Part shown: one piece after another, positions 2,633 through 21,563 of the stretch
How the letters are laid out: each line of letters begins with the position of its first letter
Numbering within the stretch: position 1 is the first letter of the stretch
Source of the DNA: a phage
Assembly: GCA_012690745.1 (NCBI GenBank)
Contig: GCA_012690745.1_4086.2
DNA length: 64,000 bases
Strand: one strand, 5' to 3'
Translations under genes and position numbers: made by a program
The notes under the pieces: generated by a model
The model's database searches: none
What the model saw: the letters and a program-made list of their open reading frames with translations, nothing else
Told to the model about the DNA's origin: nothing

Positions 2633-2663
2633 AAACTATTTTAAAAGTATTTGTAGAAAGTAC

Positions 2664-2691
2664 TTGCACCGTACTGATAAAAGCGTATAAT
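2664..2691 (+). promoter_or_regulatory. sigma70-like early promoter with downstream 5' hairpin (2705-2723)
   Basis: -35 TTGCAC 2664-2669, -10 TATAAT 2686-2691; hairpin agcgggaa-cac-ttcccgct. Confidence 0.7.
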
Positions 2692-2746
2692 GTTTTACAT
2701 CGAGAGCGGGAACACTTCCCGCTACACTTTAAGAGAGATTAATACG

Positions 2747-3109
2747 ATGGCAACTCAAATCACCAAAATTATTGCTAACCTGGTTAACTTCCGCGACGAG
2801 ATGAAAGATCTTCCGGCGGCGACGGTTAAAACTCACATTGACGCATACCGCGAACTGATTAAAATGCTGCCGCTTAAGCGTGAACAATACGCCGCTACCG
2901 TGATGCTTGATGCGATGATCCATAAGATGATCGCCAGTGATTTGACGATGGTTTATCAGTATATGGGCGAAAATTTCGCGGTGTGTAGTAAGCCAGTACC
3001 AGGGATGGCAACAACTGAGGAATTGCACGGCTTAAACTTAAAACAAGATGCATGGGATAATATGCCTCGTTTCCTGGTATGGGCTGACAGTGGCAAAATT
3101 TACAAATAA
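2747..3109 (+). CDS. hypothetical protein
   Basis: Track ORF 2690..3109 trimmed to ATG 2747 (track ATG lies in the -10 TATAATG); protein starts MATQITK. Confidence 0.6.
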   Translation: MATQITKIIANLVNFRDEMKDLPAATVKTHIDAYRELIKMLPLKREQYAATVMLDAMIHKMIASDLTMVYQYMGENFAVCSKPVPGMATTEELHGLNLKQDAWDNMPRFLVWADSGKIYK

Positions 3110-3123
3110 GTTTAATAAAGTAC

Positions 3124-3151
3124 TTGCAAACTATGTTTAATGGCGTATAAT
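3124..3151 (+). promoter_or_regulatory. sigma70-like early promoter with 5' hairpin (3163-3182)
   Basis: -35 TTGCAA 3124-3129, -10 TATAAT 3146-3151. Confidence 0.7.
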
Positions 3152-3204
3152 GTTTTACATCAGGTGGGGAATAGTTCCCCACTATATAAGAGGATTAAAA
3201 AAAA

Positions 3205-3444
3205 ATGGCTAAATCAAAAATGTTCTTAGGTCACAAAAACAAAACTCATTGGAATGTAAGCCTGTGGATTAATAACGATGAGGGATTGTATCGGTTGGCC
3301 CTGGACTTTATTGCCGCCAATACTAATCGCAATGATGCGGCCCGTCATATGATGTTATTTTTAGAACAGACTGGACAAGATAAAACACCGGACGGATTCA
3401 AATATAGCACTACTGCGATCCGTGCGGCGATGGTTGGAATGTAA
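3205..3444 (+). CDS. hypothetical protein
   Basis: Track ORF; RBS GAGGA upstream. Confidence 0.6.
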   Translation: MAKSKMFLGHKNKTHWNVSLWINNDEGLYRLALDFIAANTNRNDAARHMMLFLEQTGQDKTPDGFKYSTTAIRAAMVGM

Positions 3445-3464
3445 TAGAATTTATTTAAAGTACT

Positions 3465-3493
3465 ATCATTTTTTTGCGATAGTACTTTATAAT
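3465..3493 (+). promoter_or_regulatory. promoter-like element (good -10, poor -35)
   Basis: -10 TATAAT 3488-3493; flanks resemble the promoter at 15935. Confidence 0.3.
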
Positions 3494-3530
3494 AGTGTTT
3501 TATTCATACACCAACGATAAGGGCAACAGC

Positions 3531-3797
3531 ATGAATATTAAGTATTTTGCGACGCGTGAACAAGCTCGGATCGCCGCACGCCAGGACGGGGCAACGTTTA
3601 AAGATATGGGAGCGGGATCGGCAAGTGGTAAACGTTGGGCCATTGTAAAGCGTAGTACGGCCAGATCATTACAGTACTGGTTAGCGGCCTTAAAAAGTCC
3701 CGATAGTGTATCGCGTCGAGTGGTAGAAATAAAGCTCGACCGAAAGGGCAACCGCGTGACCGTGTACCGTACTAAAAAGATTGCAGTACTTGAATAA
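3531..3797 (+). CDS. hypothetical protein (paralog of 16012..16407)
   Basis: Trimmed from track 3495; shares FATREQARIAAR...TFKDMG...RW and DRKGNRVTVY with 16012..16407. Confidence 0.6.
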   Translation: MNIKYFATREQARIAARQDGATFKDMGAGSASGKRWAIVKRSTARSLQYWLAALKSPDSVSRRVVEIKLDRKGNRVTVYRTKKIAVLE

Positions 3798-3804
3798 AAA
3801 GTAC

Positions 3805-3832
3805 TTGCAAACTATGTTTAAAGGCGTATAAT
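3805..3832 (+). promoter_or_regulatory. sigma70-like early promoter with 5' hairpin
   Basis: -35 TTGCAA 3805-3810, -10 TATAAT 3827-3832; hairpin gagcgggaactcttcccgc follows. Confidence 0.7.
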
Positions 3833-3884
3833 GTTTTACATCGAGAGCGGGAACTCTTCCCGCCTATAACCTGGAGTAATAAAA

Positions 3885-4115
3885 ATGACTAATATGTATA
3901 TGACTGAAGTTAAAACCGTAAAAGATACTACCACGAATAAAACTACTTACTTACAGCGGATCTGTGGTGTATGGCAACGTATCAGCAAATCAAAGTACTT
4001 TAAATTAACATCATATGCAAACCGTTCTGATTCATTCAGTACTGAAATAAAAGGTAATAAAGTACACCAATACGGCACTTATTATTATTACAGCCTGGAC
4101 GCGATTGCAGTATAA
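3885..4115 (+). CDS. hypothetical protein
   Basis: Track ORF; RBS GGAG. Confidence 0.55.
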   Translation: MTNMYMTEVKTVKDTTTNKTTYLQRICGVWQRISKSKYFKLTSYANRSDSFSTEIKGNKVHQYGTYYYYSLDAIAV

Positions 4116-4145
4116 GCAGTTTACAAATCTTTACAATTGCCGGTA

Positions 4146-4174
4146 TTGACTTATTTTGTCAGTACTGGCATAAT
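4146..4174 (+). promoter_or_regulatory. promoter (TTGACT/CATAAT class) preceding inverted-repeat element pair
   Basis: -35 TTGACT 4146-4151, 17-nt spacer, -10 CATAAT 4169-4174. Confidence 0.55.
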
Positions 4175-4197
4175 GTATTCATTGGCAGATAAGCCGT

Positions 4198-19626: not shown

Positions 19627-19884
19627 ATGGAACAGTTCACACAATATCGGGTAAATCCTCAAGCTATGGCCTACGTAGAAGACCATAAAACATTACCAGT
19701 ACAGACACCAATCAAAGGCCGTATCTATCGTGCTATGCAGTGGAATAACGCCTATAATGGCTATAAAGCGGTAGCGGCTGCAATGTACTTAGGGGATGGT
19801 GAATGGTTTGATCCAAATAATCCTGGTGCACTAGATAGTACTGAACAAATGACATGGGCCGACTATATCGAAGATATCTCATAA
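19627..19884 (+). CDS. hypothetical protein
   Basis: Track ORF; RBS AAGGGGAAA. Confidence 0.55.
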   Translation: MEQFTQYRVNPQAMAYVEDHKTLPVQTPIKGRIYRAMQWNNAYNGYKAVAAAMYLGDGEWFDPNNPGALDSTEQMTWADYIEDIS

Positions 19885-19891
19885 AAACTAT

Positions 19892-19919
19892 TTGACAGTA
19901 CTACAAGATAATGTATAAT
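19892..19919 (+). promoter_or_regulatory. sigma70-like promoter with 5' hairpin
   Basis: -35 TTGACA 19892-19897, -10 TATAAT 19914-19919. Confidence 0.75.
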
Positions 19920-19972
19920 GTTTTACATAGAGCGGGGGAATAGTTCTCCCGCACCTTTAGGAGTAAAACATT

Positions 19973-20173
19973 ATGTCAATCGCTAACGAATTGGTTGCAG
20001 TACTGAATGAAGCAAAAGCCAACCGCATCGATGTACAGATCAAAGAGCTTGGCAATGGCTTGATCGGCTGTACTTGTTCCGTGCAAACGGCTACCGATTA
20101 TCGGGAAGTGGAATCACTCGAATCACTGGTACGGTATATTAAAATCCTGGTAGAAGATTGGAGAATCATCTAA
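19973..20173 (+). CDS. hypothetical protein
   Basis: Track ORF; RBS TAGGAG. Confidence 0.5.
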   Translation: MSIANELVAVLNEAKANRIDVQIKELGNGLIGCTCSVQTATDYREVESLESLVRYIKILVEDWRII

Positions 20174-20190
20174 CAAAAAAGAATAAAAAA

Positions 20191-20270
20191 GGGATTGACT
20201 CTGGTCAGTCCCTTTGCTATTATATACGCATAGACAAAAACTAGCCCACAGGGTGCAGAGAAGTATCTGT
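20191..20270 (+). promoter_or_regulatory. Repeated intergenic module copy 4
   Basis: Hairpin gggattgac-tctg-gtcagtccc; -35 TTGACT 20195-20200, -10 TATTAT 20218-20223; element 20241-20270. Confidence 0.55.
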
Positions 20271-20346
20271 AAGATAGTTAATAACGGTGAGTAACTATCT
20301 GCTGGTGGATGTAATTCCAGTACTCAAAACTATTTCAAAAAAAGTA

Positions 20347-20375
20347 TTGACAAAGTATATCAGTACTGCAATAAT
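20347..20375 (+). promoter_or_regulatory. sigma70-like promoter (extended -10 TGcAATAAT)
   Basis: -35 TTGACA 20347-20352, -10 AATAAT 20370-20375; a different GC-rich hairpin follows. Confidence 0.55.
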
Positions 20376-20428
20376 GTATCTCGTAGGGCGGCAATAGTGC
20401 GACGGCCCACAAAGTTAGGAGATTCAAA

Positions 20429-20755
20429 ATGAGTACTTCAATCGCTATCGTTAAAGCTTTCATCCGTACCAATTTCGACCGCATTACTGTTGATGGTAAT
20501 GATCGGGAAGTAGAATACTCTTTCATCGTTGCACAAACCGCAAACGGTGCACGCTATATCTTAAACGATAGTGAAGCTAACCACTACTTCTATAATAAAG
20601 GATTACACTATATCCCTAGCGAAGTAGTCTACACTAAGATGAATAAATTAGTAGACAAGATTAACGCGAAAGGTACTATAGATTTACAGTACTGGACCGA
20701 AACAGATCCAGAATACGGATCACATCGTTACCTGAATCCAGGTATTAAAATGTAA
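20429..20755 (+). CDS. hypothetical protein
   Basis: Track ORF; RBS TAGGAGA. Confidence 0.6.
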   Translation: MSTSIAIVKAFIRTNFDRITVDGNDREVEYSFIVAQTANGARYILNDSEANHYFYNKGLHYIPSEVVYTKMNKLVDKINAKGTIDLQYWTETDPEYGSHRYLNPGIKM

Positions 20756-20762
20756 AAAGTAC

Positions 20763-20790
20763 TTGCATAGTACTTAGAATCAAGTATAAT
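20763..20790 (+). promoter_or_regulatory. sigma70-like promoter with 5' hairpin
   Basis: -35 TTGCAT 20763-20768, -10 TATAAT 20785-20790. Confidence 0.7.
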
Positions 20791-20845
20791 GTTTTACATA
20801 GAGAGGGGGGAAATGGTTCTCCCTCCTAAATTAAGGAGTTTTATC

Positions 20846-21247
20846 ATGACCTTCTCAATCACTTCCTTCGCTGATGTTTTAGTACTGGCTCGGACTTTTG
20901 GTAAAGATGCACTGGAGTACGCTGTAAGTAATGGCACTCTCCAACCGGAACAATGCCGCATCATTGGAAACTGCAAACGTTGGGCGGTATCCAATACTAT
21001 TGCACTAGAAAACTTCAACGATGGTAACAATGAGTATTCAGTTGATGCAGTATTCGAAGCCGTTGATCTTGGCGGTATCTATAACACTAACCTAAATGAT
21101 GTGCGTATCGTTCGCACGGGGTTCGGTGCTTATGATGTATCTATCCGTGAAGCTATGAACACCGGATACATTAGTAAGGACTTACTTGCTCACATCATGC
21201 AGCTATGGACGGAACGTAACGAAGCACGCACTATCTTAGGACTATAA
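20846..21247 (+). CDS. hypothetical protein
   Basis: Trimmed from track 20789 to ATG 20846 (RBS TAAGGAG). Confidence 0.6.
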   Translation: MTFSITSFADVLVLARTFGKDALEYAVSNGTLQPEQCRIIGNCKRWAVSNTIALENFNDGNNEYSVDAVFEAVDLGGIYNTNLNDVRIVRTGFGAYDVSIREAMNTGYISKDLLAHIMQLWTERNEARTILGL

Positions 21248-21315
21248 GCATTACACATCACCAAACATCATAGGCCGCTCTCTAGCGGCCTTAACTATAT
21301 CAGGAGGGCATACAT

Positions 21316-21525
21316 ATGTTCTATACAGTATACAGCGTTCTAGGTACTATTGCTGGCGTACATGATAACGTCAGTGATGCTATGCGTACAGTACTGCAAC
21401 AGGTTCCACTAAAGCCTAAGACTGTTAAGCAGATGACAGCACGACTAACCAGGGCGACGGATGGCGTGGAAGTATGGCAGGACTACGGGGATACACAGAT
21501 AATCGTTAGCGTAACGAAGGATTAA
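21316..21525 (+). CDS. hypothetical protein
   Basis: Track ORF; RBS CAGGAGGG; preceded by hairpin ggccgct-ctct-agcggcc. Confidence 0.5.
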   Translation: MFYTVYSVLGTIAGVHDNVSDAMRTVLQQVPLKPKTVKQMTARLTRATDGVEVWQDYGDTQIIVSVTKD

Positions 21526-21563
21526 TGCGTAAAGGGATCTAGTACTGAATCAGAAAAAAGTCA

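Follow-up and report, generated by a model that had tools for sequence, protein, structure and literature searches.

Promoter cassettes resembling the PeSLs of T4-like phages, located in a terminal repeat, probably form the immediate-early region of an Asteriusvirus-type jumbo coliphage

We analysed 64 kb of phage DNA (64,000 nt of contig GCA_012690745.1_4086.2, hereafter the window), in which a block of small genes at positions 2650 to 21540 is densely set with promoters resembling the sigma-70 consensus. This block is probably the immediate-early region of an Asteriusvirus-type jumbo coliphage, i.e. part of a direct terminal repeat (DTR) of 20.7 kb that is filled by around 46 cassettes of around 100 bp, each carrying a promoter for the host RNA polymerase (RNAP) and resembling the PeSL cassettes of T4-like phages. 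A preliminary description of the sequence had counted around 45 near-consensus sigma-70 promoters in 19 kb, which proved accurate: curation yielded 46 units on the + strand between 2650 and 21540, including one consisting of a -10 element only (3488-3493). It had also proposed dependence on the host RNAP and an intense early expression programme. Given the match and the conservation of the promoter hexamers as well as the data available for relatives, this is still the best reading, and one that we likewise infer, while the cassette structure, its coincidence with recombination breakpoints and the location in a terminal repeat had been overlooked.

A megablast search with the block found 187 phage records, the best matches being the Escherichia phages JP4, fEgEco12, WPEC3, 121Q and phAPEC6, with 89-96 % identity. 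Only one of these 187 related records covered at least 80 % of the query, and the block is therefore a mosaic. According to the taxonomy of the matches, the relatives are Asteriusvirus jumbo myoviruses (121Q/PBECO4-type, RaK2-like), and by its sequence the window is an Asteriusvirus too, i.e. a giant coliphage like 121Q, fEgEco12 and JP4. The termini of fEgEco12 have been confirmed experimentally and delimit a DTR of 20,993 bp (PMC13070987). Window position 973 corresponds to position 1 of fEgEco12 (AGTAGGCAGAGG...), and window position 21677 to position 20,993, the end of its DTR (...GGGCGGGTAACCT). In addition, the JP4 record contains two copies of the repeat in tandem, with a junction of ...GGTAACCT to AGTAGGCAG... 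located exactly at the ends found in the window. Two independent records thus agree on the exact base at which the repeat begins and ends, and the promoter-dense block therefore lies wholly inside a DTR of 20,705 bp (973-21677, + strand, assigned by homology).

A loose promoter scan was judged too permissive for the claim, as it returned 95 sites versus 68.2 +/- 7.2 in shuffled sequences, i.e. its matches were mostly noise, although they included 11 perfect sites, all of them on the + strand. We therefore used strict mismatch classes of TTGACA-N16-18-TATAAT instead, with the expectation per strand taken from 100 dinucleotide shuffles of the 18.9 kb. Without mismatches, 11 sites were found on the + strand and none on the - strand (expected 0.00); the numbers were 21 and three with up to one mismatch (expected 0.61), and 36 and eight with up to two (expected 8.0). 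In the 42 kb past the repeat, the + strand gave two, 12 and 44 sites in the same three classes, with 0.14, 2.7 and 36.5 expected. A further nine to ten units of the block have TTGCAT or TTGCAC as the -35 element, i.e. three mismatches, yet share the whole extended cassette. Altogether, 33 of the 46 units have the perfect TATAAT as their -10 element, and the spacer measures 16 bp in 31 units, 17 bp in 14 and 18 bp in one.

The cassette begins with an A-rich UP-like tract, followed by the -35 element, the -10 element and GTTTTACATC. Its A-tracts occupy the positions of the UP-element subsites, and a nearly invariant G precedes TATAAT, extending the consensus. The extended flanks that the preliminary description had seen to be shared between promoters are indeed present, with the consensus aaAataa.tt.aAaAAAgta.TTGcaaa...G-TATAAT-atTTTacaTcaag. 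In 23 of the 46 units, the promoter is followed by a simple hairpin of 7-9 bp, with a G-rich 5' arm and a C/T-rich 3' arm (e.g. GGGGAGAA-TAG-TTCTCCCC, GTGGGGAA-TAG-TTCCCCAC and AGCGGGAA-CAC-TTCCCGCT). Transcription is predicted to start at the A of TTTTACATC or at the A that follows it; the hairpin begins 6-9 nt past this start and would thus occupy roughly positions +7 to +27 of the RNA; it is followed by an unpaired Shine-Dalgarno (SD) sequence and by the ATG, which lies 48-57 nt past the -10 element. Two to three more units (4392, 14789 and perhaps 7254) have a longer variant of the hairpin and then a second promoter. Strong hairpins in the + sense are nearly confined to the repeat, which holds 25 of the 26 found in the 64 kb, and 16 of those begin no more than 25 nt after the -10 element of a cassette. 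The predicted 5' untranslated regions (UTRs) fold into this single hairpin, in which neither the SD sequence nor the AUG is paired, with -12 to -15 kcal/mol (z -1.3 to -4.6).

Seventeen distinct stems occur in the window, and 30 among the 107 hairpin cassettes of five genomes, with full compensatory changes at several stem positions. For this comparison, pairs were counted in a register anchored at the loop; MAFFT alignments brought hairpins with loops of 3 nt and 4 nt out of register and were not used. Since stems of at least 7 bp had been selected, the figure of 100 % pairing across genomes is circular, and only the number of distinct stems and the asymmetry of the wobble pairs are informative. 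The latter amounted to 25 G.U versus two U.G pairs, and the fold therefore works only in the + sense strand. No Rfam family was found in the 64 kb at the gathering threshold and no tRNA by ARAGORN in the whole window; with E < 1, Rfam gave only sub-threshold Trp_leader-like matches in the repeat, at two terminators (7090-7175 and 7836-7900). Antitermination hairpins of the lambda nut/boxB or HK022 put type were ruled out because the loops are not conserved, and RNase III sites because the stems are too short.

The position of the hairpin near the predicted 5' end recalls the stabiliser in the 5' UTR of Escherichia coli ompA, which likewise is a stable hairpin near the end of the mRNA and upstream of an accessible ribosome site. 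In contrast to protective tails of 0-4 nt in stabilisers of that type, a single-stranded 5' tail of 5-7 nt is predicted here.

The main alternative is a role as an attenuator or terminator of upstream transcription, which would meter read-through and keep downstream genes from being over-expressed; we consider it less likely. Such a role has been proposed and in part demonstrated for the PeSL stem-loops of RB49/phi1, that of RB49 lowering the expression of lacZ to the same extent as the terminator rrnB T1 (PMC2839356), and the stems described here are likewise of the form G(n)-loop-C(n). Moreover, the hairpins at 10584, 14626, 17929 and 20188 are true terminator-like structures of 12 bp that enclose the -35 element. 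However, the 23 downstream hairpins lie within the transcript of their own promoter, where intrinsic termination would kill their own mRNA, and none of the 23 has a U run behind it (tails such as ACTAATGAGG and GGTAATGAGG); hence, they are not canonical intrinsic terminators. Canonical terminators are found elsewhere, with matches in a dedicated scan at 7148, 7873, 16431 and 6271 and about ten terminators in all.

Selection on the promoter itself is suggested by the comparison with the megablast-aligned parts of fEgEco12, JP4, 121Q and phAPEC6. Across these four relatives, identity reached 98.9 % in the -10 hexamers and 97.6 % in the -35 hexamers, compared with 93.5 % in the spacers, 94.7 % in the 10 nt after the -10 element and 93.3 % in the rest of the region, i.e. 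the conservation of the hexamers exceeds that of the spacers and of the neighbouring, largely coding sequence three- to sixfold. Conserved hexamers around a free spacer are the pattern predicted by selection on sigma-70 contacts.

The cassettes also coincide with the places where the genomes differ. We defined breakpoints as clustered ends of collinear high-scoring segment pairs between the window and the same four phages, and assigned to each cassette the interval from -45 to +50 of its -10 element. These intervals make up 23.4 % of the region and contained 23 of the 37 breakpoints (binomial p = 5e-7), examples being 5700, 5955, 8090/8122, 8659/8681, 13894, 14920/14941, 18948/19242 and 20339/20400. 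At 5172-5191 (+ strand), a promoterless hairpin of the cassette type (GGCGGGGA/ATGG/TTCCCGCC) with an SD sequence and an ATG precedes an open reading frame (ORF) in the 5180-5497 frame. This hairpin is located exactly at breakpoints 5158/5176/5192 relative to fEgEco12, JP4, 121Q and phAPEC6, where the window is longer by an insertion of 540 bp than fEgEco12 and JP4. The hairpin has the appearance of a scar left when two genes (5180-5721) were inserted by way of a cassette.

Cassettes of this kind are not restricted to the genus. While a query of 116 bp found 10-21 copies per Asteriusvirus record, it also matched around 70 bp with 80-86 % identity in phages of 137-150 kb, i.e. muut, inny, W70, PHB05 and Justusliebigvirus VEcB. 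In the phi92-like Justusliebigvirus muut (accession number NC_052657.1), the early region at 5582-6100 has the layout TTGACA-16-TATAAT-AGTTTACATCGAGAGCGGGAATAGTTCCCGCC-SD-ATG, the tandem variant with a long-hairpin leader and a second promoter is present as well, and the start of one gene is identical to that at 15226 of the window. This match points to an exchange of early genes together with their cassettes between unrelated coliphage lineages.

The same observations could be read the other way round, with the cassettes acting mainly as modules for recombination and mobility, the promoter sequence hitch-hiking, many promoters weak or inactive, and expression depending on a few strong promoters plus read-through. 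The coincidence with breakpoints, the promoterless hairpin at one of them, the sharing of the cassette with an unrelated phage lineage and the many -35 elements with only three to four of six matches are all in line with such modules. We nevertheless consider this improbable, as the preference for the hexamers over the spacer indicates selection on RNAP contacts and not on a generic recombination substrate, and as the perfect TATAAT is kept in 33 of the 46 units.

The repeat is also marked by the palindrome AGTACT, the commonest hexamer in the 64 kb, with 255 copies versus 21 expected from base composition (12-fold). It is densest in the repeat, with 130 copies compared with 31 of the next palindromic hexamer, and absent from 22001-26000 and 30001-36000. 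In 37 of the 46 cassettes, AGTACT is present, with an offset from the end of the -10 element of -32 in 18 and of -12/-13 in 17; these fixed sites correspond to the upstream edge of the -35 element and the position just 5' of the -10 element. The relatives contain 5-8 copies per kb, whereas muut has 0.17 per kb and homologous cassettes without AGTACT. The term was not found in the jumbo-phage literature that we searched. Based on the fixed offsets, the abundance and the lineage specificity, the palindrome might be the operator of a virion-delivered or early protein that activates all the promoters or later shuts them off, so that a phage-modified polymerase or a DNA-binding factor gates the promoters; tuning of early promoters has a precedent in Alt and ModA of T4 (PMC2988021). 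We regard this as doubtful, since AGTACT is equally enriched within genes and there in all three frames (46, 30 and 35), and its primary role is thus probably genome-wide and not promoter-specific; furthermore, the core hexamers alone suffice for the sigma-70 holoenzyme (E-sigma70), and no candidate AGTACT-binding protein was identified. Equally speculative is a version in which a phage protein or DNA modification recognising AGTACT switches the promoter array of the DTR jointly, with the short non-coding CCCAYNGGGTGC units described below in the same switch.

Finally, the modest excess of the loose scan (95 versus 68) and the genomic GC content of 33-39 % might suggest that the pattern merely follows from the base composition of AT-rich intergenic DNA. 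This explanation is refuted by strict matches that exceed dinucleotide-preserving shuffles more than 30-fold and are strand-biased, by the far fewer sites in the AT-richer 42 kb remainder and by the selective conservation of the hexamers.

In the reading that we prefer, i.e. an immediate-early region built from host-RNAP promoter cassettes, unmodified host E-sigma70 would fire around 40 strong promoters of the DTR immediately on DNA entry. Most of the small early genes would be transcribed both from a promoter of their own and through read-through, which would end at one of the around ten terminators. The hairpin would most likely serve as a structured 5' end that raises the stability of the short mRNAs and insulates the ribosome site from upstream sequence. 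Since the cassettes are conserved and the genes between them are not, the cassettes could also provide portable homology, by which modules of a gene and its cassette would be shuffled, inserted and deleted between related and even unrelated coliphages.

Several points weigh against this reading. In 20 of the 46 units, the -35 element has only three to four of six matches (TTGCAA, TTGCAT, TTGCAC, TTGCTA or TGGATC), and together with the prevalence of spacers of 16 bp over the optimal 17 bp this means that the promoters may differ considerably in their real strength. Being paralogues, the cassettes may owe part of their similarity to recent duplication or gene conversion and not to independent selection. 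Intergenic DNA collects breakpoints anyway, and the 37 breakpoints are not fully independent. The covariation support for the hairpin is modest, considering that purine and pyrimidine arms pair to around 90 % even when shuffled and that pairing was a selection criterion for the cross-genome set. If transcription starts at the A of ACATC, the RNA would have 6-7 unpaired nt at its 5' end, which is borderline for the protection from RNase E provided by hairpins of the ompA type. Lastly, the literature that we searched contained no data on transcription start sites, timing or RNAP dependence for this phage or any Asteriusvirus.

Among known systems, the closest parallel is given by the PeSL cassettes of the T4-like phages RB49/phi1, T4/PST and KVP40/nt-1 (Arbiol et al. 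2010, PMC2839356; Comeau et al. 2014, PMC4122927). These combine an AT-rich tract with a near-perfect sigma-70 promoter and a G(n)-loop-C(n) stem-loop, end with an SD sequence and an ATG, are concentrated between ORFans in hyperplastic regions and mediate indels and mini-circles (PMC2839356, PMC4122927). The cassettes of the window share with them the length of around 100 bp, the repetition, the order of the parts, the concentration in plastic early regions, where they separate small genes of unknown function, and the indel or replacement breakpoints between relatives. At 10584, 14626, 17929 and 20188, the stem-loop overlaps the promoter as in RB49. In contrast to the published PeSLs, in which the stem-loop overlaps the -35 and -10 elements, separates them or immediately precedes them, 23 stem-loops are here located downstream of the predicted start and thus within their own mRNA. 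They also lack a U run, and the array is denser (around 46 in 19 kb) and fills the terminal repeat of a RaK2/121Q-type jumbo phage. While PeSLs are known from T4-like (Tevenvirinae) genomes, the present cassette occurs in Asteriusvirus and in a Justusliebigvirus. As the genome that carries it is not T4-like, we call it PeSL-like and do not count it among the described sets. Overall, the array can be regarded as a slightly novel variant, of unusually high density, of the early promoter and stem-loop cassettes known from T4-like phages.

The promoters themselves resemble the early 'uber' UP/-35/TGn/-10 promoters of T4 in having excellent sigma-70 elements, UP-like A-tracts and extra consensus positions (Hinton 2010, PMC2988021). 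T4 has no RNAP of its own, and its early promoters capture the host RNAP right after infection (PMC2988021). Unlike in T4, most units described here have no true TGn but a G directly before TATAAT, TGn being present in the class with N17 and CATAAT; moreover, the 16-bp spacer predominates, and the promoters are clustered in one block of 19 kb instead of being distributed over the genome. With regard to genome organization, the pre-early region of T5, on its first-step-transfer DNA, is similar, since its first genes lie in a long direct terminal repeat and are read by the host sigma-70 RNAP (bioRxiv 10.1101/866236; PMC7472727), and a sizeable non-coding, repeat-rich stretch is found within the repeat in both cases. 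There is, however, no sequence homology, the repeat of the window is twice as long with around 50 genes, and a two-step transfer is not known for Asteriusvirus.

More closely related phages provide the same picture in part. In CBB and GAP32, which belong to the same broad group, predicted sigma-70-type promoters are concentrated in front of short ORFs annotated as hypothetical, some of them within the terminal repeat; in the RaK2-like phage CBB, 18 RpoD-like promoters with UP elements were reported in a genome of 356 kb, mainly in the early region and the repeat (Buttimer et al. 2017, PMC5259590). RaK2-type jumbo phages have no RNAP of their own (reviewed in PMC7598289). In PA5oct, a DTR of 39 kb is transcribed early and in dependence on the host RNAP, with two abundant non-coding RNAs, and the infection is rifampicin-sensitive (PMC7318152). 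Compared with the window, neither the CBB nor the PA5oct report describes a promoter-proximal hairpin, a cassette structure or a role in recombination. For rV5, 33 promoters were predicted in 138 kb (PMC3606486). For 121Q, PBECO4, phAPEC6, fEgEco12, JP4 or any other Asteriusvirus, we found no promoter analysis in the literature, and the RaK2 paper does not contain one either.

The individual hairpin cassettes are all on the + strand and combine a 16-bp spacer with TATAAT. With TTGCAA as the -35 element, they are located at 3124-3183 (hairpin 3163-3183, ATG 3205), 3805-3863 (hairpin 3847-3863, ATG 3885), 5967-6026 (hairpin 6007-6026, ATG 6045), 8372-8431 (hairpin 8412-8431, ATG 8450), 9899-9958 (hairpin 9939-9958, ATG 9978) and 10128-10185 (hairpin 10168-10185, ATG 10206). 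TTGCAC is found at 2664-2723 (hairpin 2705-2723, ATG 2747) and 8053-8114 (hairpin 8093-8114, ATG 8136), while TTGCAT is found at 10724-10783 (hairpin 10765-10783, ATG 10803), 13280-13338 (hairpin 13320-13338, ATG 13356), 18059-18119 (hairpin 18100-18119, ATG 18139), 18915-18976 (hairpin 18955-18976, ATG 18995), 19251-19307 (hairpin 19289-19307, ATG 19326) and 20763-20825 (hairpin 20803-20825, ATG 20846). Three cassettes have TGGACA (5712-5771, hairpin 5753-5771, ATG 5792), TTGCTA (6435-6490, hairpin 6471-6490, ATG 6510) and TTGATA (6752-6811, hairpin 6793-6811, ATG 6831), respectively. The perfect TTGACA is present at 11159-11217 (hairpin 11199-11217, ATG 11240), 13902-13961 (hairpin 13942-13961, ATG 13979), 15146-15204 (hairpin 15186-15204, ATG 15226), 15505-15565 (hairpin 15547-15565, ATG 15589), 18364-18422 (hairpin 18404-18422, ATG 18447) and 19892-19952 (hairpin 19932-19952, ATG 19973).

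Two + strand promoters with a long-hairpin leader stand in tandem with a perfect TTGACA-16-TATAAT promoter, i.e. 4365-4392 (TTGCAA-16-TATAAT) with 4483-4510 (ATG 4543), and 14762-14789 (TTGCAT-16-TATAAT) with 14878-14905 (ATG 14936), the second arrangement being a paralogue of 4365-4510. A long leader also follows the TTGACA-16-TAGAAT promoter at 7227-7254 (ATG 7369). Further perfect promoters on the + strand lie at 11751-11778 (16-bp spacer, ATG 11823), at 12863-12890 (16-bp spacer, ATG 12920 of a GNAT acetyltransferase) and at 15935-15963 (17-bp spacer, ATG 16003). Promoters of the type TTGACA-17-(TGg)CATAAT precede the ATGs at 8675 (8613-8641) and 11544 (11472-11500). The remaining + strand units with a gene downstream are TTGAAT-17-TATTAT at 12525-12553 (ATG 12599, encoding a DksA/TraR-type zinc-finger protein), TTGACA-17-TATTAT at 16723-16751 (ATG 16783), TTGACA-17-TACTAT at 17002-17030 (ATG 17059), TTGCCA-17-TAATAT at 17276-17304 (ATG 17333) and TTGACA-17-AATAAT at 20347-20375 (ATG 20429). 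TGGATC-16-TATAAT at 12390-12417 has a weak -35 element, and the TATAAT at 3488-3493 (ATG 3531) is a weak candidate with no recognizable -35 element.

Six promoters on the + strand precede no gene and drive short non-coding units. Two of them have a 17-bp spacer and (TGg)CATAAT, i.e. 4146-4211 with TTGACT and CCCATAGGGTGC (4200-4211), which is convergent with the minus-strand promoter 4318>4290, and 12274-12342 with TTGACA and CCCATAGGGTGC (12331-12342). The other four consist of a 12-bp tetraloop hairpin with the -35 element TTGACT in its stem, and TATTAT just after it; the hairpins are followed by TTTGCTATTAT, and each promoter drives a non-coding CCCACAGGGTGC unit, namely 10584-10657 (hairpin 10584-10611, CCCACAGGGTGC at 10646-10657), 14626-14694 (hairpin 14626-14653, CCCACAGGGTGC at 14683-14694), 17929-18002 (hairpin 17929-17956 with a UUCG loop, CCCACAGGGTGC at 17991-18002) and 20188-20256 (hairpin 20188-20215, CCCACAGGGTGC at 20245-20256).

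The preliminary description had placed all promoters on one strand, which is nearly correct, as four conserved and two weaker promoters on the - strand have to be added; of the conserved ones, 4318>4290 and 6401>6373 fall within the promoter-dense range. Both of the latter are TTGACA-17-(TGg)CATAAT promoters; 4290-4318 belongs to a unit with CCCACCGGGTGC and is conserved in all four relatives, and 6373-6401 to a unit with CCCACAGGGTGC conserved in relatives. The other two conserved ones are TTGACT-16-TATAAT at 2360-2387, in a unit with CCCAGAGGGTGC, and TTGCTT-16-TATAAT at 2144-2171, in a unit with CCCACCGGGTGC. A TTGATA-16-TATAAT promoter at 14707-14734 is antisense to the 14661 unit and of doubtful significance, its -10 element not being conserved in fEgEco12 and JP4, and a weaker promoter lies at 2018-2046 (2046>2018).

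Taking both strands together, ten short non-coding units share a promoter with N16 or N17, CCCAYNGGGTGC 24-27 nt further on and usually then N6-GTATCTAT. CCCAYNGGGTGC is located at 4200, 10646, 12331, 14683, 17991 and 20245 on the + strand and at 6344, 4268, 2331 and 2115 on the - strand; its CCC and GGG are constant and the three central bases variable. Position and orientation of these units are kept in fEgEco12, JP4, 121Q and phAPEC6, and some pairs are convergent (e.g. 4146 on the + strand with 4318 on the - strand). Two pairings are conceivable for the GGG, one with the CCC and one in which GTATCY or CGCCC further downstream completes a G.U-rich hairpin. By analogy with the repeat of PA5oct, the units may be phage small RNAs (sRNAs); Rfam gave no match for them. 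The arrangement CCCAYNGGGTGC-N11-TAWWAT resembles a middle promoter with a MotA-like box, but four of the copies point into gene-free DNA on the - strand. If AGTACT does act as a switch, the units could be a new sRNA family or origin or packaging signals within it. Among our observations, those least explained are the AGTACT signal and the CCCAYNGGGTGC units.

Intrinsic terminators on the + strand are located at 7148-7168 (AGCCCACT-TATAC-AGTGGGCT, followed by a T run), at 7873-7893 and at 16431-16449 (GGCGGG-TTCAGTT-CCCGCC, followed by T7). The hairpin at 7873-7893 is the exact reverse complement of that at 7148-7168. These two flank the gene at 7369-7851 with identical stems and reverse-complement, i.e. 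flipped, loops (TTATAC versus GTATAA), and both lie within a direct repeat of around 45 bp (agtactgaatcact...ttttttg). Such a pair is as expected from recombination within the hairpin.

The DTR starts with 1.7 kb of non-coding, repeat-rich sequence, followed by around 19 kb of small genes on the + strand. The left end (973-2650) carries promoters on both strands, including a perfect TTGACA-16-TATAAT on the + strand with no ORF downstream (1338-1365), tandem repeats of the GACGGCTAAACGGCTAGA type at 1720-1920 and a duplicated 50-mer (gattcagtactgaataatagtactcctatatagaaaga) at 2540-2640. Its repeats recall the untranslated region with the injection stop signal in the terminal repeat of T5. Apart from the DksA/TraR-type zinc-finger protein and the GNAT acetyltransferase, the genes of the DTR encode small proteins of unknown function, a content that fits host takeover; the fEgEco12 repeat has 56 annotated genes.

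Promoters directly upstream were found for around 35-38 of the 49-56 genes of the block, so that the earlier notion of one promoter per gene was overstated, around 30 % having none of their own; the share of around 70 % is approximate, as the gene caller was crude, missed a few genes and set one start wrongly. Furthermore, ORFs starting at an ATG within TATAATG, which had already been noticed, were confirmed for those at 2690, 8079, 18941 and 20789. The ORFs at 6015 and 8420 are over-long as well, since their first ATG belongs to the loop of the hairpin; their true starts are 6045 and 8450. Several starts in the public annotations of relatives likewise lie inside the -10 box or a hairpin loop, and tiny ORFs of 30-65 aa, some on the - strand, have been called there over non-coding promoter units and hairpins, e.g. 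4414-4515, 4598-4693 and 12022-12216(-) in JP4 (accession number PQ330092.1).

The arrays of paralogues begin 70 bp past the end of the DTR. Between 21745 and 64000, we counted 109 tightly packed genes with 13 gaps of at least 35 bp, six of which contain a promoter with up to two mismatches. In addition, there are promoters at 32462-32490 and at 21717-21744 (TTGACT-16-TATTAT, + strand), 40 bp outside the DTR end; the latter is likely the promoter of the first array, the first gene of which probably starts at the ATG at 21775 behind AAGGGAG and not at 21745, where an ATG abuts the -10 element. The described contrast between the repeat and the arrays holds, and the estimate of around five promoters in the arrays was roughly right, with six to eight plausible ones found.

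With around 46 testable promoters, predicted starts, corrected gene starts and terminators, the analysis provides a map of the least understood region of 121Q/RaK2-type phages, in which around 50 small early proteins of the DTR presumably take over the host. Public annotations need correction where ORFs start in a -10 box or hairpin loop and where tiny ORFs cover non-coding units. The natural modules of promoter, 5' hairpin and ribosome-binding site, with their 17 stems, also represent a parts list for the engineering of phages and E. coli. As the same cassette is found in jumbo and phi92-like phages, the logic of the PeSLs would extend beyond T4-like phages, with mobile regulatory cassettes as a general means by which large virulent coliphages exchange their early genes.

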